Shown: piece by piece, positions 1-32,376 of the stretch | How the letters are laid out: each line of letters opens with the position of its first letter | How positions within the stretch are numbered: position 1 is the first letter of the stretch | Source of the DNA: an uncultured Bacteroidales bacterium | Lineage (GTDB): Bacteria > Bacteroidota > Bacteroidia > Bacteroidales > P3 | Length of the DNA: 64,000 nt | Assembly: GCA_944320265.1 (NCBI GenBank) | Contig: CALUGT010000015.1 | Span: 3,194 to 67,193 of the forward strand | Reading direction: 5' to 3' | Program-made: the position numbers and the translations under genes | Notes under the pieces: model-generated | Databases searched by the model: none | Told to the model about the DNA's origin: nothing | What the model saw: only the letters and a program-made list of their open reading frames with translations

Positions 1-449
1 GGCTCCAAGGTCTTAAGCAGTCCGCTTTCAAAAAGGGAATATGCTTTCTTGCGGCTTTGCCCATCAATGGTGTTGTCGCTATAAGTGAACCAATCCAAAA
101 AGCGATTAGCTCTATTATTGGGATAATGCTTTGCCAATGTTTCCACACACGAATTGTCGAGCGCATCAGCTGCCCGCCGCTTGCCATCGGGCGCTTCAAA
201 TTTGAACTCGTGAGTGACACTCACGAGTTGGACACCATCCGCATTCAATTTTCGTTTGAGCCAACGCCAGTAGTTTCCAGCCTTGACATAATCTGATTCG
301 TCATTGATAGCCCGTATTATATCAATGGCAGAAAACCACCATTTGGAATTGGCTTCATCCCAAACGGCCCGCACTTCATAATCTTGATAAAAACGGATGG
401 AGAACTTGTGCGAGCCTTTCAGTTCTTTATCATTACTCTTCAAGTCCAT
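1..449 (-). CDS. Bro-N/KilA-N-like DNA-binding domain protein (partial; C-terminus lies beyond the left window edge)
   Basis: Hand translation of the minus strand from ATG at 449-447 gives MDLKSNDKELKGSHKFSIRFYQDYEVRAVWDEANSKWWFSAIDIIRAINDESDYVKAGNYWRWLKRKLNADGVQLVSVTHEFKFEAPDGKRRAADALD..., open to position 1. The VR-x-V-WD-x5-WWFSA-x-DI pattern, followed by YW..LK.KL and DGK.R..D, is typical of Bro-N family proteins. The start overlaps the hsdM stop by 17 nt. Confidence 0.55.
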   Translation of the reverse strand, partial: MDLKSNDKELKGSHKFSIRFYQDYEVRAVWDEANSKWWFSAIDIIRAINDESDYVKAGNYWRWLKRKLNADGVQLVSVTHEFKFEAPDGKRRAADALDNSCVETLAKHYPNNRANRFLDWFTYSDNTIDGQSRKKAYSLFESGLLKTLE

Positions 450-2001
450 AACCCAACTCTTGAAACAGGTTCAACAACTCCTTTTTGCTTTCTGCCTCTT
501 CGCGAAGCAGTTCTTGCATCTCGCTTTGCAGTTGCGTCATCTTCGTATCGAAGTCGATGCCTTCATCCCGGTTCTTGAACTCGATGTATTTGCTGGGCAC
601 GAGCGACCAGCCTTTCGTCTCGATTTCTTCAAGCGTAGCGGAATAACAGTATTCGGGTACGTTGCGATAAGTCTGTTCATGACCTTCGCGTTGCCAGTTA
701 TGAAAGTTTTCGGCTATTTGCGCAATCTGTTCCCCAGAGAATTGGATGTATTTCTTCTCGAACGGTTCACCCCATTGACGCAAGTCGATAAACAAAACCT
801 CATTTTCCCGGTTGCGGTAGTTTACCAATTCGCCGTTCTGTTCTACTGTGCGGGCTTTGCGGTTACCCGCTAATATCCAGAGAGTAACGCTGATATCCGT
901 AGAGTAGAACATATTACGGGGAAGGATTACAATGGCTTCCACCAAATGGTTCTTCAATAGTTGGCGACGTATGTTCAATTCTGTACCGTCTCCACTCAAC
1001 GCACCGTTGGCAAGCAGAAAGCCCGCCATACCATTGGCAGACAGTTTGGAAACGATGTTCAGAATCCAGCCATAGTTGGCATTACTTGTAGGCGGAACTT
1101 CATACCCATGCCAACGTGGGTCGTTGGTCAGTTCGTTTTCTGCCCGCCATGCCTTCTGATTGAAAGGCGGATTTGCCATGATGAAGTCCGCTTTCAAGTC
1201 CTTGTGTTGGTCGTCATGGAACGTATCGGCAGCTTTTTCTCCTAAGTTACAGGCAATGCCACGGATGGCAAGATTCATCTTCGCCAACTTATACGTGGTA
1301 TTGGTGTATTCCTGTCCATATACGGATATATCCTTTTTATTACCATGGTGCGCTTCAATGAATTTCATGCTCTGCACGAACATGCCGCCGGAACCGCAAC
1401 AAGGGTCGTAAATCTTGCCCCGGTAAGGCTGTATCATTTCCGCTATCAGGTTGACTATCGTCTTGGGCGTATAATACTCTCCTTTGCCTTTTCCTTCGGC
1501 TATGGCAAACTTGCCCAAGAAATATTCGTAGACACGTCCAATTAAGTCGTGTTCCTTGTCTTTCTGTGTATCAATCTTGCCGATGACGTCCAGCAGGCTT
1601 GCCAATTTGGTGCGGTCAAGCCCCAAGCCGGAATAATAATTACTTGGTAAAGCCCCTTTCAGTGTCGGGTTGTCTTTCTCCACCTGAGCCAAAGCCGCAT
1701 CTATCTTGATGGCAATGTCGTTCTGTTTGGCATTTTCTATCAGATAGCCCCAGCGGCTTATTTCGTTTAAATAGAAAACATTCTTGGCGTTATAGAATAC
1801 AGCCTGTTCGACAAATGCTTCTTTGCCGTCTGCTATCAGTTCGTTGCGGCGTTCCACAAAGCGGTCGTAGGCATATTTCAGGAATATCAGACTCAATACC
1901 ACATGCTTGTATTCCGAAGGTTCAACCGACCCACGTAGTTTATTCGCCGAATCCCAAAGGGTTTCTTCTATGCTCTTTTCTTTCAGCTGTTTCTTTGCCA
2001 T
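433..2001 (-). CDS. hsdM: Type I restriction-modification system, N6-adenine DNA methyltransferase subunit M
   Basis: 522-aa ORF. It has an HsdM N-terminal region (LWDSANKLRG, EYKHVVLSLIFLKY), AdoMet motif I (IYDPCCGSGGMF) and catalytic motif IV (IMANPPFN). Confidence 0.93.
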   Translation of the reverse strand: MAKKQLKEKSIEETLWDSANKLRGSVEPSEYKHVVLSLIFLKYAYDRFVERRNELIADGKEAFVEQAVFYNAKNVFYLNEISRWGYLIENAKQNDIAIKIDAALAQVEKDNPTLKGALPSNYYSGLGLDRTKLASLLDVIGKIDTQKDKEHDLIGRVYEYFLGKFAIAEGKGKGEYYTPKTIVNLIAEMIQPYRGKIYDPCCGSGGMFVQSMKFIEAHHGNKKDISVYGQEYTNTTYKLAKMNLAIRGIACNLGEKAADTFHDDQHKDLKADFIMANPPFNQKAWRAENELTNDPRWHGYEVPPTSNANYGWILNIVSKLSANGMAGFLLANGALSGDGTELNIRRQLLKNHLVEAIVILPRNMFYSTDISVTLWILAGNRKARTVEQNGELVNYRNRENEVLFIDLRQWGEPFEKKYIQFSGEQIAQIAENFHNWQREGHEQTYRNVPEYCYSATLEEIETKGWSLVPSKYIEFKNRDEGIDFDTKMTQLQSEMQELLREEAESKKELLNLFQELGYGLEE

Positions 2002-11645: not shown

Positions 11646-13721
11646 CTATTTCACCTCGTGCGCATTGATATCGCGCATGTAGGTCAGCTTGAAATCCCTG
11701 CACTTGCGCTTTTCCTGAAACATCCCCTCTATGGAATTATACTCATAGCGGTCAAAAATATCCAAACCTCGACCCAATGTAATAACCCAACCTGTGTCGG
11801 TTTTGATACACCTGTCGTGGAAATCGCGAAACTCGTAAGAAAAAACAATGCCATACTCACTCAGGTTCGTTTGCACTGTCTTCAACAGCGCAATCAAATC
11901 ATCCCGCTTCCCCGGCTCTTCAAAAGTCACTAATTTCAATTGCAACTCATCCACCGGACGAGTCTGGACCAACATCGCAGCAAACTCTATGAAATGCTTG
12001 ACCTGCCCCCGAGTACGGACATACGGGTCTTCCAGCACAATGGCATGCGCCGTTTCCAAATAAGGAGCAAACAGCTTGGCATAAGAAAGCCCCGTCTGTC
12101 CTTGGCGAATGGAAAGCGTCTGTTCCTTGAGCACAGGCGGTTTGGACAAGCCCCTGGATCCGACCGCTTTCCCATCCTGAATCCGGGAATCCCCTACCGT
12201 ATCCATGGGAATCGCATCCAGCGGAGAAGCCTCCTCAAAGGAATCCTCCGTAGCGTTATTGATGTTTTCCAATGTCTCTATTGCCACTTGTTTGCCCGTC
12301 CGCAAAGCATCGTAACGGAACACTGCCGGTTCGGCCTTGAAAGTCTCATCCACCCGGTAAAGCTGATCCTTCACCCTTTTGCGAGCCTCTGCGGCAAAGT
12401 CAATCAATTCATAAACTTCCTCATCCGTTGCTTCGCCATCGGGATACAACAACTTCATCATACCCGACACCGTCTTGCGGACAGCCAGATTATCCCTCTC
12501 CGAAAGCGAAGTATCGAATTGTGCATAACGTCCAAGAATATCGGTCCAATCCCTGTCGCGCAACTCATGGAACATCGCTGCAACATAATCCGAAATCAAG
12601 CCGAACCCCTTCGAGAAACTTTCCGTCTTCAAGACCGGCACCTCCCAACCCGGCGCGTAAAAATGAATCCGATCCAAGAAAGCCCCTTTCAAGAAGCCCT
12701 CCGGTATGCTTTCAAAAAGATGGGATTGACGCAACATATACGAAACCGTATGTTTGGTATTGCCCACAAAAACCATCGAAGCACTGGCTTCGTGCGTGGC
12801 CTTTCCTCGATTGAAAGACTTGTTTGCCAGATAATTCTGCATGATATCCACCAAAGCCGCATCCACGTTCCGCCCTTTTTGCTGCTCAAACTCGTCCATA
12901 GCCACCACATCCCAATACCCCACCAAACCCAGCAATTCCTTGTTGCCCGACATCTTGACAAACAGACGAGCCGGTGTCACATCCCCGCCGCTCACCAGCA
13001 CACTGTAAGGCGAAAGTTCCTGGAAAACATGCGTCTTTCCCGTCCCTTTGGGACCCAGTTCAATAAAATTGAAATTGTTCTCCACATGCGGCAGCAGACG
13101 AGCCAGTATGATGAGCTTTTCCCTACGGTTCAGCAAATCGGGATTCAAGCCGACCGTATGCATCAGGAAATCCAGCCATTCCTCAGTAGAGAAGTTCTTG
13201 CGCTGACTCACATATTCCTCCACATCCACCCCCGAAATCTGAATCGGCTTCAGATTCTGGATATCCCAACGAACCGTAAGGCTCTCTCCAGACAAATAGC
13301 CAATCTGCACAATGCACCACACTCCCGTACCCGACAGCAACTTGGGATTCTTCTTTACATATTCCGCCCCGATAGGCACTCCCGTCAATCCCAGATTGGA
13401 GAATACGGCATGGTAGGCATCAGCCTTCTCATTCAAGCTCACCGTAATCTTGTCAATCACCCGGTATTTGCCCCTCTCCCGGATTTTCCCTTTCACCGAC
13501 TCGGCATCGGCCCTATGGACATAATTTTCCCGAATCACCTCTTTCACTTGCTCTATGCCATCGGCAATAGCTGCCGGATCATCCGTGGCGCAATACTGCG
13601 CTAAAAGGTATTCCAAGACATAAGTAGGCACCGGCAAGCCGCCCTTGACCAAAAAAGCCAAATCCTTGCGGACCACCCGTCCCGGAAAGGATTCCAATAT
13701 TTTATCTTTCAATGTTTTCAT
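11646..13721 (-). CDS. brxL: BREX BrxL-like AAA+ protein with a C-terminal MIT_C (PLD-like) domain instead of a Lon-protease-like domain
   Basis: The N-terminus (KILESFPGRVVRKDLAFLVKGGLPVPTYVLEYLLAQYC) and Walker A (LGPKGTGKTHVF) match BrxL. It is the last gene of the BREX operon. The C-terminal 151 aa read TGLSYAKLFAPYLETAHAIVLEDPYVRTRGQVKHFIEF...FHDRCIKTDTGWVITLGRGLDIF. This closely parallels the MITD1 C-terminal domain (IEDPYIR...[22 protein letters not shown]). Confidence 0.85.
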   Translation of the reverse strand: MKTLKDKILESFPGRVVRKDLAFLVKGGLPVPTYVLEYLLAQYCATDDPAAIADGIEQVKEVIRENYVHRADAESVKGKIRERGKYRVIDKITVSLNEKADAYHAVFSNLGLTGVPIGAEYVKKNPKLLSGTGVWCIVQIGYLSGESLTVRWDIQNLKPIQISGVDVEEYVSQRKNFSTEEWLDFLMHTVGLNPDLLNRREKLIILARLLPHVENNFNFIELGPKGTGKTHVFQELSPYSVLVSGGDVTPARLFVKMSGNKELLGLVGYWDVVAMDEFEQQKGRNVDAALVDIMQNYLANKSFNRGKATHEASASMVFVGNTKHTVSYMLRQSHLFESIPEGFLKGAFLDRIHFYAPGWEVPVLKTESFSKGFGLISDYVAAMFHELRDRDWTDILGRYAQFDTSLSERDNLAVRKTVSGMMKLLYPDGEATDEEVYELIDFAAEARKRVKDQLYRVDETFKAEPAVFRYDALRTGKQVAIETLENINNATEDSFEEASPLDAIPMDTVGDSRIQDGKAVGSRGLSKPPVLKEQTLSIRQGQTGLSYAKLFAPYLETAHAIVLEDPYVRTRGQVKHFIEFAAMLVQTRPVDELQLKLVTFEEPGKRDDLIALLKTVQTNLSEYGIVFSYEFRDFHDRCIKTDTGWVITLGRGLDIFDRYEYNSIEGMFQEKRKCRDFKLTYMRDINAHEVK

Positions 13722-13778: not shown

Positions 13779-16394
13779 TTAAAAATCCCGTTCCACCAAG
13801 GTGTTGTTCCGCACATTTTCCTTGACAAGCGGGTTGAGCGGATCTTCCACATCGTACACCCTGAGCTGAAGCAAACCTCCACTGCAAGGCCGAACCAAAC
13901 GCAAGCTTACCTCATAGACCCGTTCCCGCAGACCTTCCGCCTCCGTATTGTCCATGACCACCTGCTGTTCGTTGCTCACCGGTTCGTCCCCTTGGTATAG
14001 ACAGCAAACCACCGTCCGACCCATCCGCTCCGAAGAGACAGCTTCCGACTGCACCAACTTGAAACGCAAAAGACTGGAAACCACGCTCAAGCCCGAATCC
14101 TTCAATACCAGGCCCACTTTTTCCGTCTTCTTCTCGTTCCGCCTGCTGCTATAAATGACCGGCACAAGCATTTCCTGCAAGCTGGCACCGCCATGGGCAA
14201 ACGCATAACCGCCCGGAGCCGCAAAACGATTTGTCCCGCAAGGCACCGCCACATAGACCGGTGATGCCGTTTTCACTCCCGACACCGTCTCCAAGGCAAA
14301 TTTAGCCACCCCTTCCACCGGTTCGGGATTTGCCGTAAGATAATAACGGGTCTTCAATTCCAAGCATTTCCCATCCTTTTCCAAGCCGTTATTCCCCGCA
14401 ACCGAAAGCTTGTCCTTTTCCTCAAAGGGAATGTCGTTATACAAGAATCCATGATCAGCCGTAATCAACACATTGGTAATGCTGTACGAATAGTGAAGCC
14501 GCTTGACCAAGACAGCCAGCTGCCGCACGGCCTCCCGGCAAGCCCGGATTACCTCGAACGGGCTTTGCGAATGGCTGGCCCGGTCTATGCTATCATGATA
14601 GATATAAACCAAAGTGTTCTTGAACAACTCCTTCAGAACCGCCGTGCCACTGTTCATCACATAGTCGAAACTTACACAGACCGATCTTTCCTTGAACATC
14701 TTCAATTGCGCCGACCTCTGATCCATCTCTTTCAGGACCTGCCCGTCCACCGCCATCTCCGTCCCCCTGAGTTCCAAGGCATGGTGGGGAAGCAGCGCGT
14801 TCTTGCAGAACTTGGTTTCCGTAGGCAACATGGCCCGCATAGCCGACAACTTGGCCACACTGGTCTCTTTCAGCAATTCCTGCCGCAATTCCGCCGCCAA
14901 TTCGTAACGCAAGGCATCGCTGACAATCACCACCTGCTTCACCGTCTTATCACACACTAAACTAAAGAAATCCTCCTGCTTGGGCAAAGAAAGGGAAGCA
15001 AATCCCTCCCCTTTTTCCTGCACGCAAGAAATCCACTCCCAATTCAATGTATGGCAAATACGGGCATAATCCTGATCCAGGCGAGCCTTGGCATCGGAAA
15101 AGCCCTCTCCTTCCGGGTTAAGGTGCTCCACCAGCGCATGAAACGCCTCCACGGAACGCCGGTAATAGAAATCCACAAGATAATATTCCGACAAGTACTT
15201 CCGGGCATATTCTTCCGGACTGTCCAGCTTCAGGCTCCCTATCTCATGCACCGTGGCATAATACAAGGATAACTGTTCCACAAAACGGAACGCGAACTGG
15301 ATAGGCGCTTCCGGCGGCATCTTCAAGGTAAGTTCCTTGACCTTGGAAGTGACCGATGCCGGGTCGGCAACCAGACCTGTCTCCAAGCTTTTCTGCAAAA
15401 TAGGCCAGCAAAGAGCTTCCGTGAGATAAAAATACGGGGCATCGACCCCATAACAGGCTATCAGTTTTTCTTCCTTGATGTCCGATGCCAATACCGACAC
15501 CGCTTCCTGGAATTTCCCGCCCAAGGCACGGTCATGAACGCCTGTCTCGTAAATCCGGACAAGCTGATCCAAAGCCGGCTCGCTGCTTACCTCATAGATC
15601 TTGTAATCATCGGACGGTACGGGAGCAAGCCCCCGGGTAATGATATTGTACTTGAGGCTTGCGGCCACCGCCTGCATCTTAAGCGGCGTATTTTCCTCGT
15701 ATGTCCGACCGAAAATACGCCGCAGCTTGTCATCGAGCGCCTTCCGCACATCCGGGCTCTTCCCTACCCGGTAAAAGAAATCCAGACGTTTCTTTTCCTC
15801 GCTTGCCAATCCCAATACCAGCAGCTTGACCACGATCATATCCCAGTCCAGCAGCTTCTTTTCTCCAAGATAAGAAGAAATCAAGGCCCGGCATACCACC
15901 TCCTCGTGAAAGGCTTCCGGCGTGTAATAAGGCTGCAACATGGCATGCAGCTTGGCCGACATCATCTCCCCGATATGCCGTTTCACAAAGGCGGCGTATT
16001 TCTGCGGAAGGCCATACTGTTGCAAGAAGGACGCATAATCCTCTTCCTGGTATTCCATATTGGCTTTCAGCAAATCGAGCAAGGGGAAGGATAACAGCTG
16101 CGCTTCCGTCTGCGGATAAGACTCCCCTCCAAACAGCAGGACCACCCGCTTGTCTCTCCACGTATGCTCTATGCTGTACTTGGCATTGAACCAAGCCCCG
16201 TCGAACACCTTATAGACATAGCCATCCTTCCACTCCGCCGCGTCCAGTTCCACCTTGATGATGTCCATCCGGTCGAACACGAAAAGCACATGAAGCGCCG
16301 GATTGTTCTCGAAATATCGGTATATCCTCTCTTGTACCATAGCTTTATTGTCTTTATACGCTCCTATCAAGAAAACAATGGCTTCTGAATGCAT
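13779..16394 (-). CDS. pglZ: BREX alkaline-phosphatase-superfamily protein PglZ
   Basis: 871 aa with PglZ-domain motifs (VVIVSDALRYELAAEL; VLITADHGF). It sits between pglX and brxL. An alternative start at 16340 would remove the 28-nt overlap with the upstream small ORF. Confidence 0.9.
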   Translation of the reverse strand: MHSEAIVFLIGAYKDNKAMVQERIYRYFENNPALHVLFVFDRMDIIKVELDAAEWKDGYVYKVFDGAWFNAKYSIEHTWRDKRVVLLFGGESYPQTEAQLLSFPLLDLLKANMEYQEEDYASFLQQYGLPQKYAAFVKRHIGEMMSAKLHAMLQPYYTPEAFHEEVVCRALISSYLGEKKLLDWDMIVVKLLVLGLASEEKKRLDFFYRVGKSPDVRKALDDKLRRIFGRTYEENTPLKMQAVAASLKYNIITRGLAPVPSDDYKIYEVSSEPALDQLVRIYETGVHDRALGGKFQEAVSVLASDIKEEKLIACYGVDAPYFYLTEALCWPILQKSLETGLVADPASVTSKVKELTLKMPPEAPIQFAFRFVEQLSLYYATVHEIGSLKLDSPEEYARKYLSEYYLVDFYYRRSVEAFHALVEHLNPEGEGFSDAKARLDQDYARICHTLNWEWISCVQEKGEGFASLSLPKQEDFFSLVCDKTVKQVVIVSDALRYELAAELRQELLKETSVAKLSAMRAMLPTETKFCKNALLPHHALELRGTEMAVDGQVLKEMDQRSAQLKMFKERSVCVSFDYVMNSGTAVLKELFKNTLVYIYHDSIDRASHSQSPFEVIRACREAVRQLAVLVKRLHYSYSITNVLITADHGFLYNDIPFEEKDKLSVAGNNGLEKDGKCLELKTRYYLTANPEPVEGVAKFALETVSGVKTASPVYVAVPCGTNRFAAPGGYAFAHGGASLQEMLVPVIYSSRRNEKKTEKVGLVLKDSGLSVVSSLLRFKLVQSEAVSSERMGRTVVCCLYQGDEPVSNEQQVVMDNTEAEGLRERVYEVSLRLVRPCSGGLLQLRVYDVEDPLNPLVKENVRNNTLVERDF

Positions 16395-16909
16395 TCACGG
16401 AATTGAGAAACATCGCAAACTTTGCATTTCGCCAATGCCTTTTCCACCCGGCTTTGCTGAGCGAACCAACGTTCAGCCCGGGCAGTCACATTCTTATTGA
16501 AAACGAACCAAGCAGATGAATCAATACGCAAACCGCCTTCTGAAAGCAAATCCCTCGTATGCGACATTTTCTCCCTCAATTCACTCAGAGACAAATTATT
16601 CGTATTCTTGTACTTCATTCTCAATTCTATCATCAACAACCGTCTCTCCCGCAATTGTCCGTCAGTTTGAGACGCAAGCCCGATTACCGCATCCATGGTA
16701 GGCTTTGGTTGAGCGGACTTGCAAATTTTACTCTCGTAAGTATCCATATCCAAGCATCGTATCTCCTTGTCAAAATAATCCGTTCCAGAGTAATCCCGAT
16801 TGGACACATCATTCAACAAAGCTCCGCATTTCGAGAACAAGAGATGACGCTCAAGATACGCATTATCATATACCAGGGCTTCCATATTCTTTGATTCTGT
16901 CCAAGGCAA
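16367..16909 (-). CDS. Hypothetical 180-aa protein, partner of the embedded ATPase (contains an Rx4H motif)
   Basis: The ORF overlaps the ATPase stop (16866) and the pglZ start (16394), so it is translationally packed into the BREX operon. The composition looks helical. It contains LSELREKMSHTRD (R112-x4-H117) and DAVIGL...LLMIELRMK. I recognise no family. Confidence 0.5.
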   Translation of the reverse strand: MPWTESKNMEALVYDNAYLERHLLFSKCGALLNDVSNRDYSGTDYFDKEIRCLDMDTYESKICKSAQPKPTMDAVIGLASQTDGQLRERRLLMIELRMKYKNTNNLSLSELREKMSHTRDLLSEGGLRIDSSAWFVFNKNVTARAERWFAQQSRVEKALAKCKVCDVSQFRECIQKPLFS

Positions 16910-18200
16910 TATTGAAAGACTTGAAAATCTCGGCTATCTCATGGCCAAGGTTCTTATAAACAAACTGATGGGGCGATGTTTGCGAAGGCTCTGCCACATA
17001 AAACCAAGTGGTATCCAGCATGCCTTCCTTCTCGGCTATGTCGTGGAGAGCGGCCACCATGTCGGGATTATGCGAAGCCAACAGCACTTTCAAGCCCAAT
17101 TTCTTGTTCAACAGCACCAGCAGCCGGGCAAACTCCACAATCCATTGCGGATGAAGATGCGCTTCCGGCTCATCAATCAGCAAAAGCGTATTCTTGTCCA
17201 AATGCCCATTTTCCAGCAAACGCTGCATATAGGCAAAAGTCTTGAAACCGGTAGCCACTTGCTTCAATTCTATATTCACCTGGCCATCCTTTGACACATA
17301 ACGAAGCTCCGGCCTCCCTATTGGGTTCTTTTCCATCAAGACCTTACCTTCTATCAAATGGCCAATCCCCTCCAGCATGGAAGAAGCCTCCGGCGACAAT
17401 GCATGCTTCTTATCCATAACCCTCCGCTGCAAATCCCTCCAAATCCTATTGGAAGAATCCTCCGTTGCCGCCATTGGCGTATCTATATAAATAGCATCCT
17501 TCAGATTCAGCAAACGGCCAACAGTATCCTGTTCCATAATCCCTACACTGTCTTCCTCCAACTGCAATTCTTCAGGCACACCTTCGTCCATAGGGAACCT
17601 TTGCTGCACGAACTCAAATAGAAGTTTCCTCGGCCTATTTCCAAGCTTTTGATGTAAGGCTTCGGTCTCCTTTTGCAGGTGTTCTCTTTCCTTCTGTGAA
17701 AATAGGGCAATAGACAAGGTCAAATCGCTTCCGATATGGATATCCAAAAATTTCAAAACCCTTTCCACCCGTTCTTTCGGCATCTCATCATCCAAGCCTG
17801 ACAAACATTCTTCCGTAAAGGCAAGGGCATCCAAATACAATTCCTGCATTTCTTCAATCATACTATCCAACTCTCCAGAAACAACTTGCATAAATTTCCC
17901 CTTGACTTGCTGTATCCTGTTTGCCGCACTATCCATCGGGTTATCAGAAACTCTTCCTCGTCCCAATTCCATGCAGGCAACACGCCAATCCTCCATCTTT
18001 TTCCACAACTTGCCACCGTAATCATCCACCACCAGATACCTTTCAAGATTCACAGCCCCATTGACAATATAATACAGCCAGCGAGAAAGGGTGCTTTTGC
18101 CGCATCCGTTGACTCCCGACAAGACCGTGATGCCGTCAAGCTCGATTTCCGCATTTTCAATAGCGTGATAGTCACGCATGATATATTTATATCGGCTCAT
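16866..18200 (-). CDS. ABC-like AAA family ATPase (AAA_15/AAA_21 type) embedded in the BREX operon
   Basis: Walker A is LSGVNGCGKSTL. A long helical insert is followed by Walker B/D-loop LLLIDEPEAHLHPQW and an H-loop-like LLASHNPDMV. No nuclease domain is visible in the 444 aa. Confidence 0.85.
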   Translation of the reverse strand: MSRYKYIMRDYHAIENAEIELDGITVLSGVNGCGKSTLSRWLYYIVNGAVNLERYLVVDDYGGKLWKKMEDWRVACMELGRGRVSDNPMDSAANRIQQVKGKFMQVVSGELDSMIEEMQELYLDALAFTEECLSGLDDEMPKERVERVLKFLDIHIGSDLTLSIALFSQKEREHLQKETEALHQKLGNRPRKLLFEFVQQRFPMDEGVPEELQLEEDSVGIMEQDTVGRLLNLKDAIYIDTPMAATEDSSNRIWRDLQRRVMDKKHALSPEASSMLEGIGHLIEGKVLMEKNPIGRPELRYVSKDGQVNIELKQVATGFKTFAYMQRLLENGHLDKNTLLLIDEPEAHLHPQWIVEFARLLVLLNKKLGLKVLLASHNPDMVAALHDIAEKEGMLDTTWFYVAEPSQTSPHQFVYKNLGHEIAEIFKSFNIALDRIKEYGSPGI

Positions 18201-18229
18201 AATCTCTAAAATTTCAAATGTTCAAAGCC

Positions 18230-19003
18230 TCATTTCAATTTGGCAAGGACATCGCCGAACTTGGCATGGTTCACAATAACCCCATCGTCCAAATCCAAAT
18301 CGATGGCCTGTTCCGCCACTACTTGCAAACGGTCGTGGTATTCCCGGCATTCATCCAATGTCTTTTCCAAAGCGCTCAACTTGCGCGTCTCCCCCGTGCT
18401 CAACTGGGCGGCCCGGGATTCCAAGTCCTTGGCCCGGTTTTGCAAAAAATCGATATAAGGCAGAAGGTATTTGACCCGGATGCGTTCCGCCGTGTAAGGA
18501 GCCATCCGGTGCAGATAGGTGATGCAGCGGAAAGCCCCCTTCCTGGAAGACCAAAGCCAGTAGATAGGGCGGTTCTGGTACATCCGCTTATGGTCTTTCC
18601 AGAACTCCTTGTCCACATAACGCTCTATGGTCATGCCCAAGCTCTTTTCCATGAAATTAAGGTTCTCGGTCAATTTTGCCGTGCCAAAGGCAATGCGGAC
18701 AAAGTCCACCACCCTCCGTTCCAGATTGTCCTCAAAAGGGCAATCGTGCGGCAGCAGGGGAATGATGCCGTCATCGTCTATCTGCAAGACTTGCCCCTTA
18801 TATTGGTAAGGAGCCAATTCCTCTGCCGTAGGCTTAGGATGGGCTATATGCAAACCCGGTTTATCCAAACGGTAACGCCCCATCCAGACACCCACCGCAT
18901 AACTGATCAATTGCTGCATGGCCACCTCCGGATGCCATACAATCCTTTCCGAACCTGCCACGTTTGTATTCATTGCTTTCATTTCTTCGCATTTCTTTTC
19001 CAT
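18230..19003 (-). CDS. pglX: BREX PglX, C-terminal fragment (separate ORF)
   Basis: It contains MQQLISYAVGVWMGRYRLDKPGLHIAH ... NRPIYWLWSSRKGAFRCITYLHRMAPYTAERIRVKYL, the conserved C-terminal region of BREX-1 PglX. The start is set at the first ATG (19003); the ORF track extends to a TTG at 19048. Confidence 0.8.
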   Translation of the reverse strand: MEKKCEEMKAMNTNVAGSERIVWHPEVAMQQLISYAVGVWMGRYRLDKPGLHIAHPKPTAEELAPYQYKGQVLQIDDDGIIPLLPHDCPFEDNLERRVVDFVRIAFGTAKLTENLNFMEKSLGMTIERYVDKEFWKDHKRMYQNRPIYWLWSSRKGAFRCITYLHRMAPYTAERIRVKYLLPYIDFLQNRAKDLESRAAQLSTGETRKLSALEKTLDECREYHDRLQVVAEQAIDLDLDDGVIVNHAKFGDVLAKLK

Positions 19004-19055
19004 ACACTCTTGCTTCAGACTTAAACGAACCAACTCCAAGAAAAGCAACCTATTT

Positions 19056-20735
19056 TCAGAAAAGAGTCCTTCCCTTTTCTGTAAGCCGGTAAGTCTGCTT
19101 CGCGCTGGTCGGCTTGTCCGGATACGTCATAGCGACATAACCCAGTCTGATAAGCGGAAGAATAATCTTTCGTTTCAGCTCTTTGGTTGAATCAAAAGAA
19201 AGATTATCGTTCAAGCTGTTGGCCGACATGGAACTCTTCCTTAAAAGGCATAGCAAATCAATCGTATCAGACATCAGTTCTTGAACACTATCCTTAGACC
19301 GCCCCTCCCACACTTGGACAAACATTTGTCCAAGTATCTGTCCAAGCTCTATCTTTTTCTTTATAACACACTGATTCACCATCAATTCAACTTGGACAGC
19401 CATTTGTCCAAGTCTGAGTCTAAGTCTGTCGTCAAGCACACATTCCTGCCCTTCAAAAACACGGTCAGCATCTTCGAACCCATGTCGACAAGGAATCGTA
19501 AGAAGAAAATAAGTTCTACCCTCATCCGTGTCAATAGTTGCTGGCGCAGATCCATTCTCTTTCAATGCCTTCTGAATTGTCGGTATCCCAGTCGCCCTGC
19601 CCTCCGTCAAATCCAATTCTTTCAAAAAATCGCCCAATCTACGGTTACGATACCTGCGAGCCTTCAATTTCTGCGCCATTTTTATAGCCTCCGCGCTAAT
19701 GGACCTATCAGGTCCGGCATAGCTCAATATATCGATATGGGTAGGTTCTACTGTGATTTCCACAGGTTCCCGTTCTTGATAATCACGGTGATACAAAGCA
19801 TTGACGACAGCTTCCTCTAAGGCTTGGTAAGGATAATTGAATATCCTATTCGATTTCTCGGTATCTGCCGGTTTGATAATCTTTGTCTTGACGACATTGG
19901 TACGAAGATACGACAAAGTTTCCTTGATAATCCGAGGTACAGGGCCGACTATCTTGGGAACCTCAATTAGTAAATCAGGATTGTCGATACTTCCGCCCGG
20001 AAACAACACGATATCAACTTGTGTAACAGGAAAGAACTTTTCTGGATATTCACAAAACATCATTATGGCACAATTTTTTATCTGCCTGCATTCTGTCGGT
20101 CCTGTCAGCAAATCCATCTCGTCAAGAATATCTATCAGCGGCCTCGCAACAAAACTTTCCGCCAGCTTGCTCCCTACTTTCTTGAGATGCTCATACACAA
20201 GTACGCCGGATATATCGTCTATTTTTGCAAAAGCATTGCCCCGTTCATCAAAGGGCACACGATTTACCAACTCACGTACCGCATCCAAAATCTCGCCTTT
20301 AGCCTCGATGGTGGAAGACTTGCTTCGTATATAAAATTTCGACACCGACTTTTTGGCAACTACGCTTTCAGCCACAGAATAAGGTCTGTTTATTCCAGCC
20401 GGAACCCATATGACAAGAATATTTTTCCCATCCACTTCTTCCACCGACACTTTAGAAAGGTAGGTTGGAGAAACCTTGGCATCATAGCCCACCATATCTT
20501 TCTGAATACGGTCTATCTCGTTTTCGGCCAAACCCTTTACCGGCCTCTTTGCAATCCCGTTTTCTTCTTCAACCCCCACCAGAATATATCCGCCTCCGAT
20601 ATTGTCAAAATCGGTGGCAAAGGCAGCAATAGTATGATAAATTTTATCCGGATTCCAACCCGCTTTAAATTCTATCCGGTTCGACTCGACCCTCCGTCTG
20701 TTAAGCAAATCTTCGATGTTTATAGGTAGTGCCAT
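19056..20735 (-). CDS. Schlafen/AlbA_2 domain plus HATPase_c_4 plus C-terminal wHTH protein, nested within pglX
   Basis: The N-terminus is VESNRIEFKAGWNPDKIYHTIAAFATDFDNIGGGYILVGVEEENG (AlbA_2). The middle is EEAVVNALYHRDYQEREPVEITV...GRATGIPTIQKAL (HATPase_c_4). The tail resembles winged-helix regulators. It is on the same strand as the two pglX pieces and is visibly more AT-rich than the flanks. Confidence 0.8.
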   Translation of the reverse strand: MALPINIEDLLNRRRVESNRIEFKAGWNPDKIYHTIAAFATDFDNIGGGYILVGVEEENGIAKRPVKGLAENEIDRIQKDMVGYDAKVSPTYLSKVSVEEVDGKNILVIWVPAGINRPYSVAESVVAKKSVSKFYIRSKSSTIEAKGEILDAVRELVNRVPFDERGNAFAKIDDISGVLVYEHLKKVGSKLAESFVARPLIDILDEMDLLTGPTECRQIKNCAIMMFCEYPEKFFPVTQVDIVLFPGGSIDNPDLLIEVPKIVGPVPRIIKETLSYLRTNVVKTKIIKPADTEKSNRIFNYPYQALEEAVVNALYHRDYQEREPVEITVEPTHIDILSYAGPDRSISAEAIKMAQKLKARRYRNRRLGDFLKELDLTEGRATGIPTIQKALKENGSAPATIDTDEGRTYFLLTIPCRHGFEDADRVFEGQECVLDDRLRLRLGQMAVQVELMVNQCVIKKKIELGQILGQMFVQVWEGRSKDSVQELMSDTIDLLCLLRKSSMSANSLNDNLSFDSTKELKRKIILPLIRLGYVAMTYPDKPTSAKQTYRLTEKGRTLF

Positions 20736-20751
20736 GGTATGTTCTCTATTT

Positions 20752-23721
20752 TTATTCGGTGGGGGATTTCTCGATGGAGATTTCGCCTTGCTGGAGGATG
20801 GTCACCTCTTCCAAGGGCACATCGGGGGTAAGCTCGTCGGCGAGGTCGTAGATTTCGATGAACTGCCGGTTGAGTTCCTCCTCGTTCCGGTGCAATTGCA
20901 GGAACTTGGTCTCCCATTTGGTCTTATAGACCTCATAGCGCCATTCCAAACTGTCTAAATCGAGTGCCGGCAGATTCACACAAGGCACTCCCCGGAAATC
21001 GGCATCTTCAGCCATAATATCTCTATAGGCATTCTCATCTATCGCCACCAACTCGTTCTGTTGGAAATCCCAAGAAGTCTCATGCGCGTCCCAGTCCTGC
21101 TTGGAGATGGAGATGTTTTGAAAAACTAATAAATCTATCTTATCTGAATCCTCAATAACAATAAAGGGAATCTTTCCCATAGGTCCCTCATGATAATCCA
21201 AAGTTGGAGATAATGTCTGTAAAAACACATATGATAAAGCCGAATTAAGGTATCCCATAATGCAATACAAATCATTATCAGCATAAGGGAAACAAACCGA
21301 ACCCTTGGTTTCAAAAAGCCAACTCCTATCAAAATAACGAAAAGACGGTTTCCCAGAGGATATTGTAGACCACGTAGCACCTATCTTTCCAAAATAGAAG
21401 CCTTCATTCTGAGGACGAGACTTCAACTTTCCATCTATGTCTTTAAAATTTTTTATTTCAACTCCGTTATGTTCCCAATTCACCACATATTCCATATTGC
21501 CATACCATCGTCTAAAAGTACCACCTTTGGTAATAGGAAACCATTTTTTTCCTGATTCTTTTGCTTCTTCAGCAGAACCCATTCCAAATCCAATCCGTGC
21601 CAGAGTGACTTCATGCCAATATCGAATAAACCTGGCGTTGTCCGCTGTTTGCAAGCCTACACAAGGCTTAGCAACAGCGGACAACGCCAGGTTTCCCGCG
21701 AAGCGGGAAAAAATTTTTTGAGAAACCCAGTACCCTATCGGGCTTCCGGGGATTTTTTTGAAATTTTGCTGAAGAACATGGGGGTAATAAATCCGATTTC
21801 CAACCTCCGAATAAGGCAATGTCTCAACTTCTTTGGTATATTCCTTGAAATTATACTTAAAATCATGGTCTGCTAAAGTCTGTTCAAACAACATCCGCAA
21901 ATGCTTTTGGTCAAACTCTTGGAATGTACGCTCCACCAAACGGAAATAGGTCCCGCAAGCAGCCGGATTCTGCGACTTGGCAATCACAGCCGACGACGAG
22001 CCAAAGTCTGCGCCAAACACCCCTCTACTAAGATGCAAAATAGAATCGATAGATTGACTATCGAGTATTCCTTTCCGCAAATTTTCAAAAGTACTTAGAA
22101 ACATCCAAGATGGAGGGATAATAAACCCATATCGTCCATGCGTTTCTAATCTTTGGGGCATCATTTCAACAAAAACCGTAGCCAAGTCCCCCTTCCCAGC
22201 CTCGTAATGCTTCTTCACATAAGCCGACAAGACCGGATTCATATTGCCGCCGCCCATATAAGGTGGATTCATCACCAAAACCGCATATTTCTCCGTCAGT
22301 ACCTTAATCAGGTCCAAGGCCGGTAGCAAAGCCGTGACGGATTCCGGCAACAGGGGCTGCGCCTTCCAGTAATCCATCGCCTGGGATATGGCCGATAGCG
22401 TAGTTTCGGACAAGTCGAACTTCATAATGGAACCCAAGGATTCGGCATCGGATAGCAAAGAAAAGGCCTTTTGCATCTCTGCCAGCATCTTGTCATTCTC
22501 CAGACCATTAAAGAAGGCTTTCAACGCCTTATCCAACGAGCCATAAGCCCCCTCATTCCAAGGCTGAGGCATATCCAAGACCTGCGGCAAAACCTTGGCA
22601 TCGACAAAGGAGGCATCTTTCTGGCAGGCTTTGAGCAGAAGCGCAAACAAGGCAAGCTGCTTGGCCCGGGTATCTATGTCCACGCCCCTCAGGTTGCAAC
22701 GGAAGATATTCTCCACCGCTTCCTTGCGCCCATAGCCCTCGGAGATATAAAGCTCGTACAAAAGGTCGAAGCATTCGTTGAGGATATGGCCAGATCCGCA
22801 AGCCAGATCCGCCACCTTCAAATCGGTCAGTTCGGCATAGCGGTAACGGCATTCCTCCGGTGTCGGTTCTCCCTCCACCCAATAAGCCCACTTCCGCTTC
22901 GCCTCCTCGGCATAAGGATTGTTATCCCAATAAATCCTCCCCAAGGTATTCTGCACCATATATTTCACAATCCAATTGGGCGTGAAAATCTGGGTTGCCG
23001 CTGGAATCTCGTCCGCCTCGAACTTGCCTTTCTTGGCAAACACCTCATCCTTGCGTTCCGAGATATAGAACTGGTAGAGCCAGCCTATCAGTTCCGGGGA
23101 ACGGTAGTCCTCCTCGGCAATAAAGTCGGTATGGTTGAGCATGTCCACAAAACCGCCCTCGCTCAGGATGTTGATCGGCAGCATCAGTTCCGTGTAGTCC
23201 TGCATGCGCCCGAAACAAGCCTGCATCAAAGGGTTCTGATGGCACCAGGCCACCATCAGAAGCGCGAACTGCTCGGTGGTCTTGGTATCGTCTTCCAACA
23301 ATTCCAGCAAACGCGTCCTTTCCGCCTCCGGCATACGGGGCAAGCGTCCCCGCCTGGCATCGTCCACGATACGGGGGGTGCGCACCTCGTCCACGAACTC
23401 GATTACCGGCTCGCACAGGCCGTTTTTCTGAAGAATCCGAATCGCCACCAGACGGTTGAACCAGGTGTAAGCCGCCTCCTCGCAGGTCTCCTGCATCCCT
23501 TTCCGGGCGATTCTCTCGTAGAGCGCCATCCAGCTATGGTAAAAGCGTTCCGTATAGAAACCGCCCTGCCAGAGGGTTCCGCCCTGCATCAGCTTGGGCA
23601 TGGCTTCTTCCGGGATATGGCCGTTCTTGTCAAAGCCCAAAGAACGTATCTTGGCTTCCACGCCGCTCTTGAGGCGGGTCCGGGCTTCGTTGGCGAATTT
23701 CTTCAGCTTGTTGGTTTCCAT
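20752..23721 (-). CDS. pglX: BREX adenine methyltransferase PglX, N-terminal fragment (989 aa, methyltransferase core)
   Basis: The N-terminus (FANEARTRLKSGVEAKI..., YTWFNRLVAIRILQKNG) is typical of PglX. Motif I is VADLACGSGHIL and motif IV is VLVMNPPYMGG. It ends ...TILQQGEISIEKSPTE-stop, about 240 aa short of a full-length PglX. Confidence 0.9.
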   Translation of the reverse strand: METNKLKKFANEARTRLKSGVEAKIRSLGFDKNGHIPEEAMPKLMQGGTLWQGGFYTERFYHSWMALYERIARKGMQETCEEAAYTWFNRLVAIRILQKNGLCEPVIEFVDEVRTPRIVDDARRGRLPRMPEAERTRLLELLEDDTKTTEQFALLMVAWCHQNPLMQACFGRMQDYTELMLPINILSEGGFVDMLNHTDFIAEEDYRSPELIGWLYQFYISERKDEVFAKKGKFEADEIPAATQIFTPNWIVKYMVQNTLGRIYWDNNPYAEEAKRKWAYWVEGEPTPEECRYRYAELTDLKVADLACGSGHILNECFDLLYELYISEGYGRKEAVENIFRCNLRGVDIDTRAKQLALFALLLKACQKDASFVDAKVLPQVLDMPQPWNEGAYGSLDKALKAFFNGLENDKMLAEMQKAFSLLSDAESLGSIMKFDLSETTLSAISQAMDYWKAQPLLPESVTALLPALDLIKVLTEKYAVLVMNPPYMGGGNMNPVLSAYVKKHYEAGKGDLATVFVEMMPQRLETHGRYGFIIPPSWMFLSTFENLRKGILDSQSIDSILHLSRGVFGADFGSSSAVIAKSQNPAACGTYFRLVERTFQEFDQKHLRMLFEQTLADHDFKYNFKEYTKEVETLPYSEVGNRIYYPHVLQQNFKKIPGSPIGYWVSQKIFSRFAGNLALSAVAKPCVGLQTADNARFIRYWHEVTLARIGFGMGSAEEAKESGKKWFPITKGGTFRRWYGNMEYVVNWEHNGVEIKNFKDIDGKLKSRPQNEGFYFGKIGATWSTISSGKPSFRYFDRSWLFETKGSVCFPYADNDLYCIMGYLNSALSYVFLQTLSPTLDYHEGPMGKIPFIVIEDSDKIDLLVFQNISISKQDWDAHETSWDFQQNELVAIDENAYRDIMAEDADFRGVPCVNLPALDLDSLEWRYEVYKTKWETKFLQLHRNEEELNRQFIEIYDLADELTPDVPLEEVTILQQGEISIEKSPTE

Positions 23722-28913: not shown

Positions 28914-31900
28914 ATGAGACTAAAACAAAACTTTCTCAACAGTTGCTGGCTATTAGCTTTCTGCGCCCTGCCAGCAACGAGTCTGGCAGGCAGCGAACGC
29001 CAACCAAAAGGAGCAAGCCTTCCGCGAATCCAGCTCCAGGAAATCAAGCAAGACACGAACTTGGCAGACCATGCCTTGGTAATTCTCAAAGTAAACGAAA
29101 GCTGGAGCAAAGGCACTGGTTTCCAGTTGCTCATCGACAAAGACTGGACGGATAACGAAAGCGGGACCATGGGCGACGCGACATTGGAAAACTTCCTGTT
29201 CGACACCTATTCCTGGAATGCCTTGGAAGAAACATACCTGATCTACCAAGGCTGCGACTACTTCATCCCTGAAAATGCTACTGGGCAAGAGAACTCCCCG
29301 GTAGTCCATGCCGGAGAGCAAGATTCCGTTTACATTGAATGCAATGGTAGCTATTACCAGTACGCCATCTTTGAAATGACAGATGAAGCCATGGGATACA
29401 ACGCACCCGAATGCCCTCCCGGGTACTATGACTTATACGACTATACCAACTCATACGGCGGTGCCAGCTACGACGGATTCGAATTTAACAATGGTTTCAT
29501 CTATGTCTTCACCGTACTGCCTGGAAACGTGACCCGGACCGCCACCAGCGTGATGGGCGCGCCGGATTTAACGGTCGAACGGGTGCACCTGCCATCTTCT
29601 TCCTGCGCGTTGGGCATGGAAACCATCGCTGCCACCCTCCGCAATACCGGCAAAGGCGATATCTACGGTTTCAAGGCCTCCTATTCCGTAGACAAGGAAC
29701 CAGCTGTGGAACAATCCTTCTCTGACACGCTGCTCATCGGCGAAGAAATCCGGATCACCTTCGATTCCTTGGCCGATTTCTCGCTCCCCGGCCACGAATA
29801 CAGGGTAACCGTCACTGCTTCGCTCTTAGAAACGGCTGCTGTTCCCGAAGTGGATACAGGAAACAATGGGAATTATGCGCATGCGACCAATTCCGAACCT
29901 CTTTACCTCCCCTACATCAGCGATTTCACCAATGAAATGTACGGCGACCACTACTGGTCTTCCTGGATTGCCGATTCCTACGAAGACGAATGGATGCTGA
30001 GCCAAGGCGAATGGTCTGCCCAACAGGATCATGTCCCCTTGGTATCGCCTTGCTTCTACATTGAAAAAGGCATCTACCGTTTCACCTACACCTATCAGGC
30101 TGGCCTTGACGTTGGCGTGTACCAGCAAGGATGCAGCTATGGAATCCAAATGGGCAAAGCCGAAGACAACCCCTTTGATTTTGACACTCTCTATTACGCG
30201 GAAGAAGAATTCACGCAAAGCCGTTATGTAAACAATAGCTTTGTCTTTGAGGTGGAAGAAGACGACCACTATGCCTTTGCCATACAGACATTCTACTTGC
30301 CAACTTTCTATTTGCAGGACATCCAGATTGAAAAAGTAGACAGTTACGACTTGGCCGTCAACAGGCTGAGCCTCGCCACCCCGCACCGCTTGCCTTTGCG
30401 CCAATTGCCGGAATCCATTCCAGCCGCAGTGGAATTGGAAAACCTTGGTTCCAAAGATATCACCTATACCCTGCAGTTCTCCGCCAATGGACAAGTACTG
30501 GCGCAAAACGTGCAAGACTCGCTGCCTGCGCTCAGCAATGGCACAGCCGAAATTTCCTTGAGCGGGTTTCCCTGCATTGACATCGGCGACACGATGAACC
30601 TTTATGTCAAGGGCAGCATCAAAGACTCTCTCGATGCCAACATCCACAATGACACGGCTTGCAGCTTGTTTATCCTCAGCGATACCGTAATGGCCTACGA
30701 CCGTCTCGACTTTGACCGAAGCATCGTATCGGCCGGTGCTGTAGGAGGAGATGCACCTGTATGGGCCGGAACGGTATTCAACTTAGCCCGCCGCGACACC
30801 TTGAGTTCCATTTCGCTCGGCCTAAGCTACAGCACGCAGAAATTCAATATCGGACTAGCAGTCTACCACTGGGATGCCGAGAAGGAAGTCGTTGGCGAAT
30901 CCTTGTTCGACATAGAAGTGGAACGGGAAAGAGAATCCGGGCTTTATACCTTCCCTGTCCCTGCCCGGAGCTTGGACAGCGGCAGCTACCTCTTTGCCTT
31001 CAAGCAATTAGGGACCCAAAGCGCGAATGTCTTGTGCGACAACATGCCGGGGGGTGCTTTTTATACCTTCAATTCCGATACTTCCGTCATCCAGACCCAA
31101 GCTGGATTCCTTTGCCTGCGAGCCAATTTCGGTTCAGCCGAAATAGTAGCACAACGGGATGCGATGCTCTCGGGCATGGAAAAACCCGCCTCCCGGGGTA
31201 TTTTCACCAAGACCGAAGAAATCGTGGCCAATGTCACTAATAACGGACCTCAGCCCTTGCATGATTTCCAAGTTCTCTGCATTGCCGACAAAGACTCCCT
31301 GTACGCTGTCATCGACACATTGGCTCCGTATGCGGCCACTACGGTTTCTTTCATAGCAGACCTTTCGGCCATCGGGACTCACCGTCTTTTCTTCCAGACC
31401 ATGCTTGCAGAAGACGAGAACCCGGCCAACGACACCCTGACGCGAACCGTGGAATGCATCGAAATGCCCGATCCGTATTTCATGGACTTTGAAGCCTGCC
31501 AAGACTTCAGCCAGGAAAATTTCCAATCAGGATGGGCCAGCATCGACCGTGACAACACGGGGGTTTGCGTCATCGACGAGTTCATGTACCCGGGCTGGGC
31601 TGAACCATGCGGTTTCATGGCTTTCAACCCGTACCTGACCGAACCAGCCATGGAGGCCGAAGGCGCGCTGCCGTATGATGGCCAACGCTACGGTGCCAGC
31701 TTCAGTGCCAGAGGCAACGTGCGGAACAACGACTGGCTGGTTTCGCCCAAGCTGCAAATGCCGGAAAGCGGTTCCTACATCGAGTTCTACGCCAAGTCAC
31801 TCAACGGCAACTACGGGTTAGAAGTGTTCAACGTCCTGGTTTCGACCACAGACCTTGACCCTGACAGTTTTGCTCCTGTTTTAGAAGAAGTGGAAGCCCC

Positions 31901-32294: not shown

Positions 32295-32376
32295 CAAAAA
32301 CGTACCCGCCCCGCTGTGCGTGCATAATCGGCCAATCGCTTATCTTTGCACCCTGGTTATATCAGGATTGCAGCTC

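Follow-up and report, generated by a model that had tools for sequence, protein, structure and literature searches.

Is the pair of overlapping genes lodged in the bacteriophage exclusion (BREX) operon of an uncultured Bacteroidales bacterium part of the restriction machinery around it, or a defence unit in its own right? The locus lies in a stretch of 64,000 nucleotides (nt) from assembly GCA_944320265.1 (contig CALUGT010000015.1, positions 3,194 to 67,193, forward strand). This whole stretch is referred to here as the window, and positions are given in its coordinates. A type 1 BREX operon occupies its minus strand, as judged from Pfam, PADLOC, and NCBIfam matches. Between the pglX and pglZ genes of this operon, and on the same strand, lie a gene for an ATPase of 444 amino acids (aa; 16866..18200, minus strand) and a small open reading frame (ORF) whose product we call the partner. 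With a probability of roughly 0.7, we favour the explanation that the two genes form a self-contained anti-phage cassette, an OLD-type ATP-binding cassette (ABC) ATPase plus a nuclease, carried as a passenger in the BREX operon. The case is built from sequence comparison and predicted structure.

The initial annotation had joined the ATPase and the small protein into one module, and conservation bears this out. Using an ATPase alignment, we retrieved 59 genome loci with a related ATPase (labelled L plus a number where one has to be named). They come mostly from Bacteroidota, with a few from Lachnospiraceae, Oscillospiraceae, Lactobacillales, and Moraxella and one from a Melainabacteria metagenome-assembled genome. 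Four of the 59 end at a contig edge and were left out, which leaves 55 informative loci. A partner gene follows directly downstream on the same strand in 53 of these, recognised by hidden Markov model (HMM) in 50 and by motif in three with a divergent partner. Only two loci with room for a partner lack one, and in one of them the ATPase gene is broken and followed by an integrase. The two genes are thus a conserved unit, 53 of 55 loci carrying both, and homologues of the small ORF are regularly found beside homologous ATPases.

The small ORF had been read as a 180-aa protein overlapping the ATPase gene by 44 nt. An ORF of that extent does exist (16909-16367, minus strand, opening at TTG 16909), but every close homologue opens with ME..., the start that gene callers also picked on related contigs, so the partner most likely starts at ATG 16885. 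This gives a protein of 172 aa (16367..16885, minus strand). It also shortens the overlap with the ATPase gene to 20 nt (16866..16885, minus strand; partner ATG at 16885-16883, ATPase TGA at 16868-16866). The same overlap arrangement is found in L007, L016-L023, L082, and L083, and across the family the overlap is usually about 20 nt.

That the small ORF is coding, as first proposed, is upheld by its homologues and by selection. An exhaustive profile search recovered 323 representative clusters at E<=1e-3, 208 of them at E<=1e-10; a word-indexed search had retrieved only two clusters, and it was the exhaustive HMM search that revealed the family. The ratio of nonsynonymous to synonymous substitution rates (dN/dS) was 0.14-0.31 in the three comparisons of the window gene with relatives having enough differences, and the value of 0.66 against L011 is based on only 7 differences. 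Members of the family are mostly 255-275 aa long, some 160-190 aa, and come mostly from Bacteroidota, with some from Firmicutes and Moraxella and one from a gut phage. No Pfam, PADLOC, NCBIfam, or PHROGs family could be assigned to the window protein or to 114 aligned members (Pfam to E<=10); the initial annotation had likewise been unable to place the small protein in a family. By these searches the partner family is sizeable and unnamed, missed by all four collections. A profile search of Protein Data Bank (PDB) sequences returned only insignificant TetR-like matches, and these fall in a C-terminal domain absent from the window protein. A solo 161-aa homologue, 56% identical and without an ATPase, occurs in L001 (10001-10486) and L002 (5498-5983). 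It retains all invariant residues, is without the first ~12 residues, and lies between lnt and a type IX secretion system (T9SS) cargo gene, the same pair that flanks the BREX island of the window (28914-34299).

The larger gene has every feature looked for in an OLD-type ABC ATPase: Walker A, a signature-like motif, Walker B, a D-loop, an H-loop, and Pfam scores above the gathering cutoff. AAA_15 (67.3 bits, cutoff 32.1) and AAA_21 (61.8 bits, cutoff 27) are its only Pfam domains, and the statement that it has no effector domain of its own therefore holds. The previously noted Walker A, GVNGCGKST (aa 29-37; 18090..18116, minus strand), and Walker B plus D-loop, LLLIDEPEAHLHPQW (aa 339-353; 17142..17186, minus strand), are both confirmed in the translation. 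In an alignment of 35 ATPase sequences, the Walker A residues G29, N31, G32, G34, K35, S36, and T37 are invariant, as are I342, D343, E344, P345, E346, L349, H350, P351, Q352, and W353 of the Walker B and D-loop. Between the two lies ATGFKT (aa 316-321; 17238..17255, minus strand; A316, T317, G318, and K320 invariant), which by analogy with ABC ATPase architecture we infer to be the signature motif. The H-loop region ASHNPDM (aa 375-381; 17058..17078, minus strand) is invariant at all seven residues, A375-M381. A conserved C-terminal extension (aa ~390-444; 16869..17033, minus strand) contributes a further invariant set: F400, Y401, A403, L418, I425, F426, S428, F429, N430, A432, I436, Y439, and G440. 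Homologues of the ATPase number 1781 at E<=1e-5 among the candidates scored, many at 43-55% identity. PADLOC gives partial matches to HEC-02A, AriA, NsnB, PD-T4-4_A, Old, PtuA, and GajA, and the nearest solved relatives, AriA and an OLD nuclease, match only weakly. Its Pfam and PADLOC neighbours, rather than a phylogeny, would place the ATPase in the OLD clade.

What varies in this ATPase is a central insert, aa 51-315 (17256..18050, minus strand). Window and L011 share 98% nucleotide identity over the locus, except that window 18052-17255 has no match. At the protein level the two ATPase alleles share 98% identity in aa 1-50, drop to 25.9% in aa 51-315, and are 100% identical from aa 316 to aa 444; their partners are 97% identical. 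Family-wide, aa 51-315 is again the least conserved stretch of the ATPase, and the C-terminal ~55 residues are strongly conserved. The insert, which separates Walker A from the signature motif, thus looks to have been exchanged as a cassette-like block, as expected of a surface under phage-driven diversification. Since the insert has been swapped between BREX loci that are otherwise 98% identical, we infer that aa 51-315, proposed here as a sensor or arm, is a diversifying region that senses the trigger.

The partner was modelled with AlphaFold2. A first run on a 3-sequence alignment had a predicted local distance difference test score (pLDDT) of 59.6 and was discarded. The model from the alignment of 114 partner sequences, which also underlies the residue counts below, reached a pLDDT of 95.7 and a predicted TM-score of 0.91 and describes a compact alpha/beta domain. 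Strands run over residues 3-6, 21-23, 43-46, 66-74, 77-89, 121-129, and 155-158 and a helix over 100-117. The protein had been expected to be helical, and that description gives way to one of about seven strands plus helices.

Four residues are invariant in all 114 sequences, with codons on the minus strand: D48 of CLDMD (16742..16744), which is also kept in a 58-sequence alignment from the loci; D65 of TMDAVIG (16691..16693), at the start of a beta-hairpin; E87 of MIELRM (E87-L-R89, 16619..16627); and K106, in the following helix (16568..16570). Position 89 is R in 104 sequences and K in 10, and D31, Y32, D46, E51, T63, G69, R/K89, and Y92 are near-invariant. More distant partners commonly have K at position 89 (VELKF, VEAKL, ADAKY, TEMKM, TEYKF), and the phage-borne relative reads VEFK. 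In the model, D65 sits just ahead of strand 66-74 and E87-x-R89 closes strand 77-89 of the same hairpin, and D65 and E87-R89 should therefore lie side by side in space. The family thus has a conserved D...(D/E)xK pattern on adjacent strands, with D65 as the proposed D and E87-L-R89 as the proposed (D/E)xK. Because D48, D65, E87, and K106 are invariant and together with R/K89 give this pattern, the partner is probably a divergent PD-(D/E)xK-type nuclease, with a predicted metal-dependent site drawn from D48, D65, E87-x-R/K89, and K106. Foldseek searches with the model gave no match at E<=1e-3 (best 0.018 in BFVD and 0.14 in PDB). The weak matches are mostly PD-(D/E)xK proteins (Nt.BspD6I at probability 0.75 and TM 0.37, EcoT38I, MUS81, CinB, BsmI, Can2, UL24, VRR-NUC, DUF2726). 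A TOPRIM reading of D46-x-D48 was rejected: there is no conserved first-strand glutamate, the motif order is wrong, and no TOPRIM model of Pfam or PADLOC matches.

The closest experimentally validated parallel is WonAB of Vibrio cholerae, an OLD-ABC ATPase with a variant PD-(D/E)xK nuclease (Adams et al. 2025, PMC12137116). WonAB needs both genes and the catalytic lysine, and its activation stops translation but leaves the chromosome undegraded. Its authors see kinship with PD-T4-4 and with the operons, termed 'OLD-ABC ATPase + Novel REase', that Krishnan et al. (2020) reported (PMC12137116). The cassette resembles it in its two-gene layout, in which an OLD-type ABC ATPase that lacks an effector domain is joined by a probable variant PD-(D/E)xK protein of ~140-190 aa, in the variable inserts and C-terminal extension of the ATPase, and in the motif order of the partner (hxhD ... 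D ... ExK), which is that of WonB and Novel REase. In a profile comparison with 18 WonB/Novel REase sequences from the supplement of PMC12137116, hhalign aligned D65 and E87-x-K89 with CD and ELK of WonB (P=0.0086; reversed control 0.57), a score that is not significant. Between the ATPase and WonA the match is local and confined to the ABC motifs (blastp 1e-5 to 1e-6), and, unlike WonB, most close partner relatives carry an extra ~95-aa C-terminal domain and usually have R at position 89. A primer search for V. cholerae wonB in viral contigs gave no match. Taken together, the architecture matches WonAB and 'OLD-ABC + novel REase', whereas neither protein is a sequence member by the blastp and hhalign comparisons.

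Other systems of this kind are related at a greater distance. PARIS likewise combines an ABC ATPase sensor with a separate nuclease effector, and it too is associated with restriction loci, a conceptual parallel; for the ATPase, AriA ranks among the best hits in PADLOC and in PDB sequences, although the match is partial. The analogy that the initial annotation drew with ATPase-plus-nuclease systems, PARIS among them, is sound as regards architecture, but the partner, unlike AriB, is not a TOPRIM/DUF4435 protein (no Pfam or PADLOC match for the window protein and the 114 members). PD-T4-4 shares an AAA_15-type ATPase and a small nuclease-like partner. The ATPase match to PD-T4-4_A (E 3.6e-14), however, is partial and covers only aa 256-382, and none of the 114 partners matches PD-T4-4_B at E<=0.01. 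Septu, whose partner is the HNH nuclease PtuB, differs as well: only one of the 114 partners matches a PtuB model (E=0.0018), and none has an HNH Pfam match.

Genomic context is informative on whether the cassette depends on its host operon. The BREX arrangement of the window recurs in L004, L005, L006, and L011, and relatives with ~47% ATPase identity lie inside type I restriction-modification (R-M) operons between hsdS and hsdR, in two architectures; in L079 the partner stop overlaps the hsdR start. In searches with phmmer seeds, which distant or other R-M types may escape, only 3 of the 59 loci had BREX or type I R-M neighbours within 10 kb. Other cassettes stand alone beside murF/alr or within a capsule-synthesis cluster. 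One gut phage carries a distant version, and plasmids carry essentially none. Since stand-alone copies predominate, the cassette is, as far as these comparisons reach, an autonomous mobile unit that has entered methylation-dependent restriction operons more than once and does not depend on them. A defence role is supported by the relatives in type I R-M operons, BREX operons, and a gut phage, together with the exchange of the ATPase insert.

Several of the related loci are of interest for their composition. L082 (5756-7589) has a short-form cassette, a 448-aa ATPase and a 168-aa partner overlapping by 20 nt, among the glycosyltransferases of a capsular-polysaccharide cluster, and in L033 a related ATPase without a partner is followed by a glycosyltransferase. 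L031 (3815-7066) stacks two ATPase-nuclease dyads: a degraded cassette, whose 118-aa partner has an internal deletion, and, directly after it, a WonAB-like pair made up of a 374-aa ATPase and a 142-aa protein that carries CD...FVELKG. The R-M operon that hosts a cassette relative in L007-L010 (2360-5467) also has a Menshen-like trio between hsdM and hsdS, composed of DUF262/GmrSD_N, an AAA_15+DUF3696 ATPase, and a 279-aa protein (compare PMC12065111).

Several points weigh against reading the cassette as an anti-phage ATPase-nuclease unit. No fold match of the partner is significant (Foldseek values above), and hhalign gives only a 4.7% probability for the comparison of the partner with WonB. 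The order of strands around the motif is not the textbook alpha-beta-beta-beta-alpha-beta, and in the close clade position 89 is mostly R, not K. The ATPase-partner pair is covered by none of the PADLOC system models. The 56%-identical partner homologue occurs without any ATPase. Finally, most family members adjoin housekeeping or capsule genes, and the defence role is drawn from context and analogy.

The host operon itself is well defined. Six genes were matched in order on the minus strand: brxA (28718-28032), brxB (28137-27424), brxC (27427-23780), pglX in two pieces (an N-terminal part of 989 aa at 23721-20752 and a C-terminal part at 19048/18982-18230), pglZ (16394/16340-13779), and brxL (13721-11646). 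A 559-aa gene with Schlafen_AlbA_2, HATPase_c_4, and Fic-like_C (winged helix-turn-helix, wHTH) domains lies between the pglX pieces (20735-19056, minus strand). The initial annotation had the cassette inserted between pglX and pglZ; strand and position ahead of pglZ are as stated, but pglX is split and the cassette follows its C-terminal fragment. From that fragment to the ATPase start the spacer is 29 nt (18201..18229, minus strand, by ORF coordinates). On the other side, a 28-nt overlap of the small ORF with pglZ had been described. The match to the PglZ profile of PADLOC sets in at residue 20 of the long pglZ ORF and pglZ is called at 853 aa on related contigs, so pglZ most likely starts at ATG 16340, giving 853 aa, and the overlap gives way to a likely spacer of 26 nt (16341..16366, minus strand). 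A promoter and terminator scan gave counts at chance level and does not cover Bacteroidota promoters; it placed no terminator-like site in either spacer. Given the shared strand, the 26-29-nt spacers, and the lack of a terminator within them, the cassette is likely co-transcribed with BREX.

The middle of the operon also differs from the rest in composition. G+C content is 41-50% in the 1-kb bins of window 16001-22000 and 50-56% elsewhere in the operon, which would fit a late arrival of the cassette together with the Schlafen-type gene and the recognition region of pglX. The pglX pieces match positions 1-960 and 955-1209 of NF033452 (1210 positions), with no profile positions missing. The split gene spans 18230-23721 (minus strand) and has a C-terminal piece of ~250-272 aa; L004, L005, L006, and L011 show the same split. 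By comparison with E. coli BrxX, whose C-terminal domain is 838-1205 (PMC11842806), the break falls within the C-terminal domain, ahead of the metal-binding site. Window and L004 are 98% identical over the locus except for a ~600-nt stretch of pglX (21120-21725, minus strand; aa ~665-867) with no nucleotide match, and the kilobase around it has the lowest G+C of the operon (41%). Since this stretch corresponds to the BrxX target-recognition domain, closely related strains probably carry different BREX specificities. Elsewhere in the window, an ORF at 433-2001 (minus strand) resembles the type I methyltransferase HsdM (phmmer E 2e-129 against the HsdM of L007), and a second restriction system may thus lie ~10 kb from the BREX operon.

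Much of this locus has counterparts in a 2026 survey in Nucleic Acids Research, which covered 594 taxa and found OLD-type ABC ATPases paired with TOPRIM, HNH, PD-(D/E)xK, or PIN nucleases in BREX loci and reads such pairs as back-up effectors (PMC12839542). The cassette is comparable to these dyads in joining an OLD-type ABC ATPase with a predicted non-TOPRIM nuclease inside a core BREX-1 operon, and it differs from them in being mainly stand-alone and only sometimes in BREX. The survey also reports genes with Schlafen, minimal histidine kinase, and wHTH parts and an HKD tail on BrxL (PMC12839542), and the window locus has both. BrxL (11646-13721, minus strand) carries a C-terminal MIT_C/phospholipase-D-like domain (aa 544-683, E 4.6e-35), which corresponds to the HKD nuclease tail recorded for some type 1 BrxL proteins (PMC12839542).

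Against this background, the alternative that best withstands the data is that the pair is a subunit of the restriction machinery, an ATP-driven nuclease recruited by BREX or type I R-M for direct cutting of unmodified DNA, and not an independent abortive-infection module. The position within the operon between pglX and pglZ, with spacers of only 26-29 nt, the partner stop overlapping the hsdR start in L079, and the listing of auxiliary endoDNases within BREX loci in the 2026 survey (PMC12839542) would all suit such a subunit. Most relatives, however, lack BREX and type I R-M genes in the surrounding 10 kb or sit beside murF/alr or capsule genes, and canonical BREX-1 works without the pair (PMC12839542 and other BREX papers). 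We therefore consider a dedicated restriction subunit unlikely.

A toxin-antitoxin-like addiction module, stabilising the island with no phage sensing, is less probable still. Two small, tightly coupled genes, the second a likely nuclease by prediction, in a mobile cassette of varied contexts might be expected of one, but a 444-aa ABC ATPase with a recombining hypervariable insert is atypical of an antitoxin. The WonAB precedent also speaks against it, as simple sequestration was ruled out there and WonB is toxic only with active WonA (PMC12137116).

Could the window copy instead be a decaying remnant, non-functional after loss of the partner C-terminal domain? Partners of the closest ATPases are mostly ~262 aa long and consist of the catalytic domain and a ~95-aa helical C-terminal domain; close partner relatives are mostly 255-278 aa, against 172 aa in the window, which, with the solo 161-aa homologue and the degraded copy of L031, would speak for decay. 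The window partner, however, keeps all invariant residues and ends cleanly, exactly at the domain linker, without the helical domain. Its short form persists at 95-97% identity across several metagenomic contigs, with dN/dS of about 0.2. In most loci of the wider family (34 of 53) a short form accompanies an intact ATPase, and the close clade has such pairs as well. Because this short form is conserved and others accompany intact ATPases, the window partner is, by these comparisons, not a one-off truncation, and decay of the cassette is very improbable.

The remaining alternative, raised in the initial annotation, takes the small protein for a HEPN RNase with an Rx4-6H motif and the pair for a split PrrC-like anticodon nuclease. 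In PrrC, which is linked to EcoprrI and sits within that restriction operon, one polypeptide combines an N-terminal NTPase with a C-terminal, HEPN-like anticodon nuclease domain. The cassette is similar as a predicted NTPase-controlled nuclease in a restriction operon, with relatives between hsdS and hsdR, but it consists of two ORFs in different frames with a 20-nt overlap. The sequence LREKMSH is present where reported (16576-16559; 16559..16576, minus strand), and its H109 (172-aa numbering) is found in 93 of 114 members (82%). It is nevertheless not a conserved motif: R104 is a minority residue in its column, where E (26 of 114), K (17), and L (13) are commonest, the homologues in L001 and L012 have Rx3H spacing instead, and the one in L007 lacks the motif. 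This reading is barely credible, as the HEPN signature is absent, matches to HEPN Pfam families are inconsistent even at E<=10 (one of 114 members, one family, E=0.029), the invariant residues are acidic plus lysine, and the alpha/beta model with a pLDDT of 96 rules out the all-alpha HEPN fold.

Returning to the anti-phage cassette, structures of Septu and PARIS, together with models of Menshen and WonAB (PMC12065111, PMC12137116), suggest how it might work, WonAB especially. By analogy with them, the conserved C-terminal extension of the ATPase would be the docking site of the partner, so that an ATPase dimer or oligomer would hold the nuclease there. The variable insert (aa 51-315) would sense a phage-derived cue, and ATP binding or hydrolysis would then license the nuclease to cut nucleic acid, either RNA or DNA. 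The outcome would most likely be aborted infection.

The idea of a BREX guard is a reasonable proposal that, as a general hypothesis, has already been published; that this cassette specifically guards BREX is doubtful. Equally tentative is a further reading, which sees in the cassette a Bacteroidota counterpart of PARIS that would use a PD-(D/E)xK effector and whose hypervariable insert would sense phage anti-restriction factors or disabled methylation-dependent restriction. If true, this would explain why the cassette has been captured repeatedly, in BREX operons (between pglX and pglZ) as well as in type I R-M operons (at the hsdS-hsdR junction). On the same view, the short partner without the C-terminal domain may be an adaptation to life in an operon, and the middle of this BREX operon, where pglX is split around the Schlafen-type gene, would be a slot for swappable second-line effectors.

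The conceptual picture is unchanged by these findings, as ATPase-plus-nuclease dyads, PD-(D/E)xK variants among them, and their presence in BREX loci have already been published; by the sequence comparisons above, the cassette is a further family within this known kind. The work supplies candidate catalytic residues for the partner family and a candidate sensor region for the ATPase, and it would allow better annotation of defence islands in gut Bacteroidales. It also provides a concrete example for studying whether nuclease cassettes that lie within BREX and R-M operons serve as back-ups against anti-restriction.

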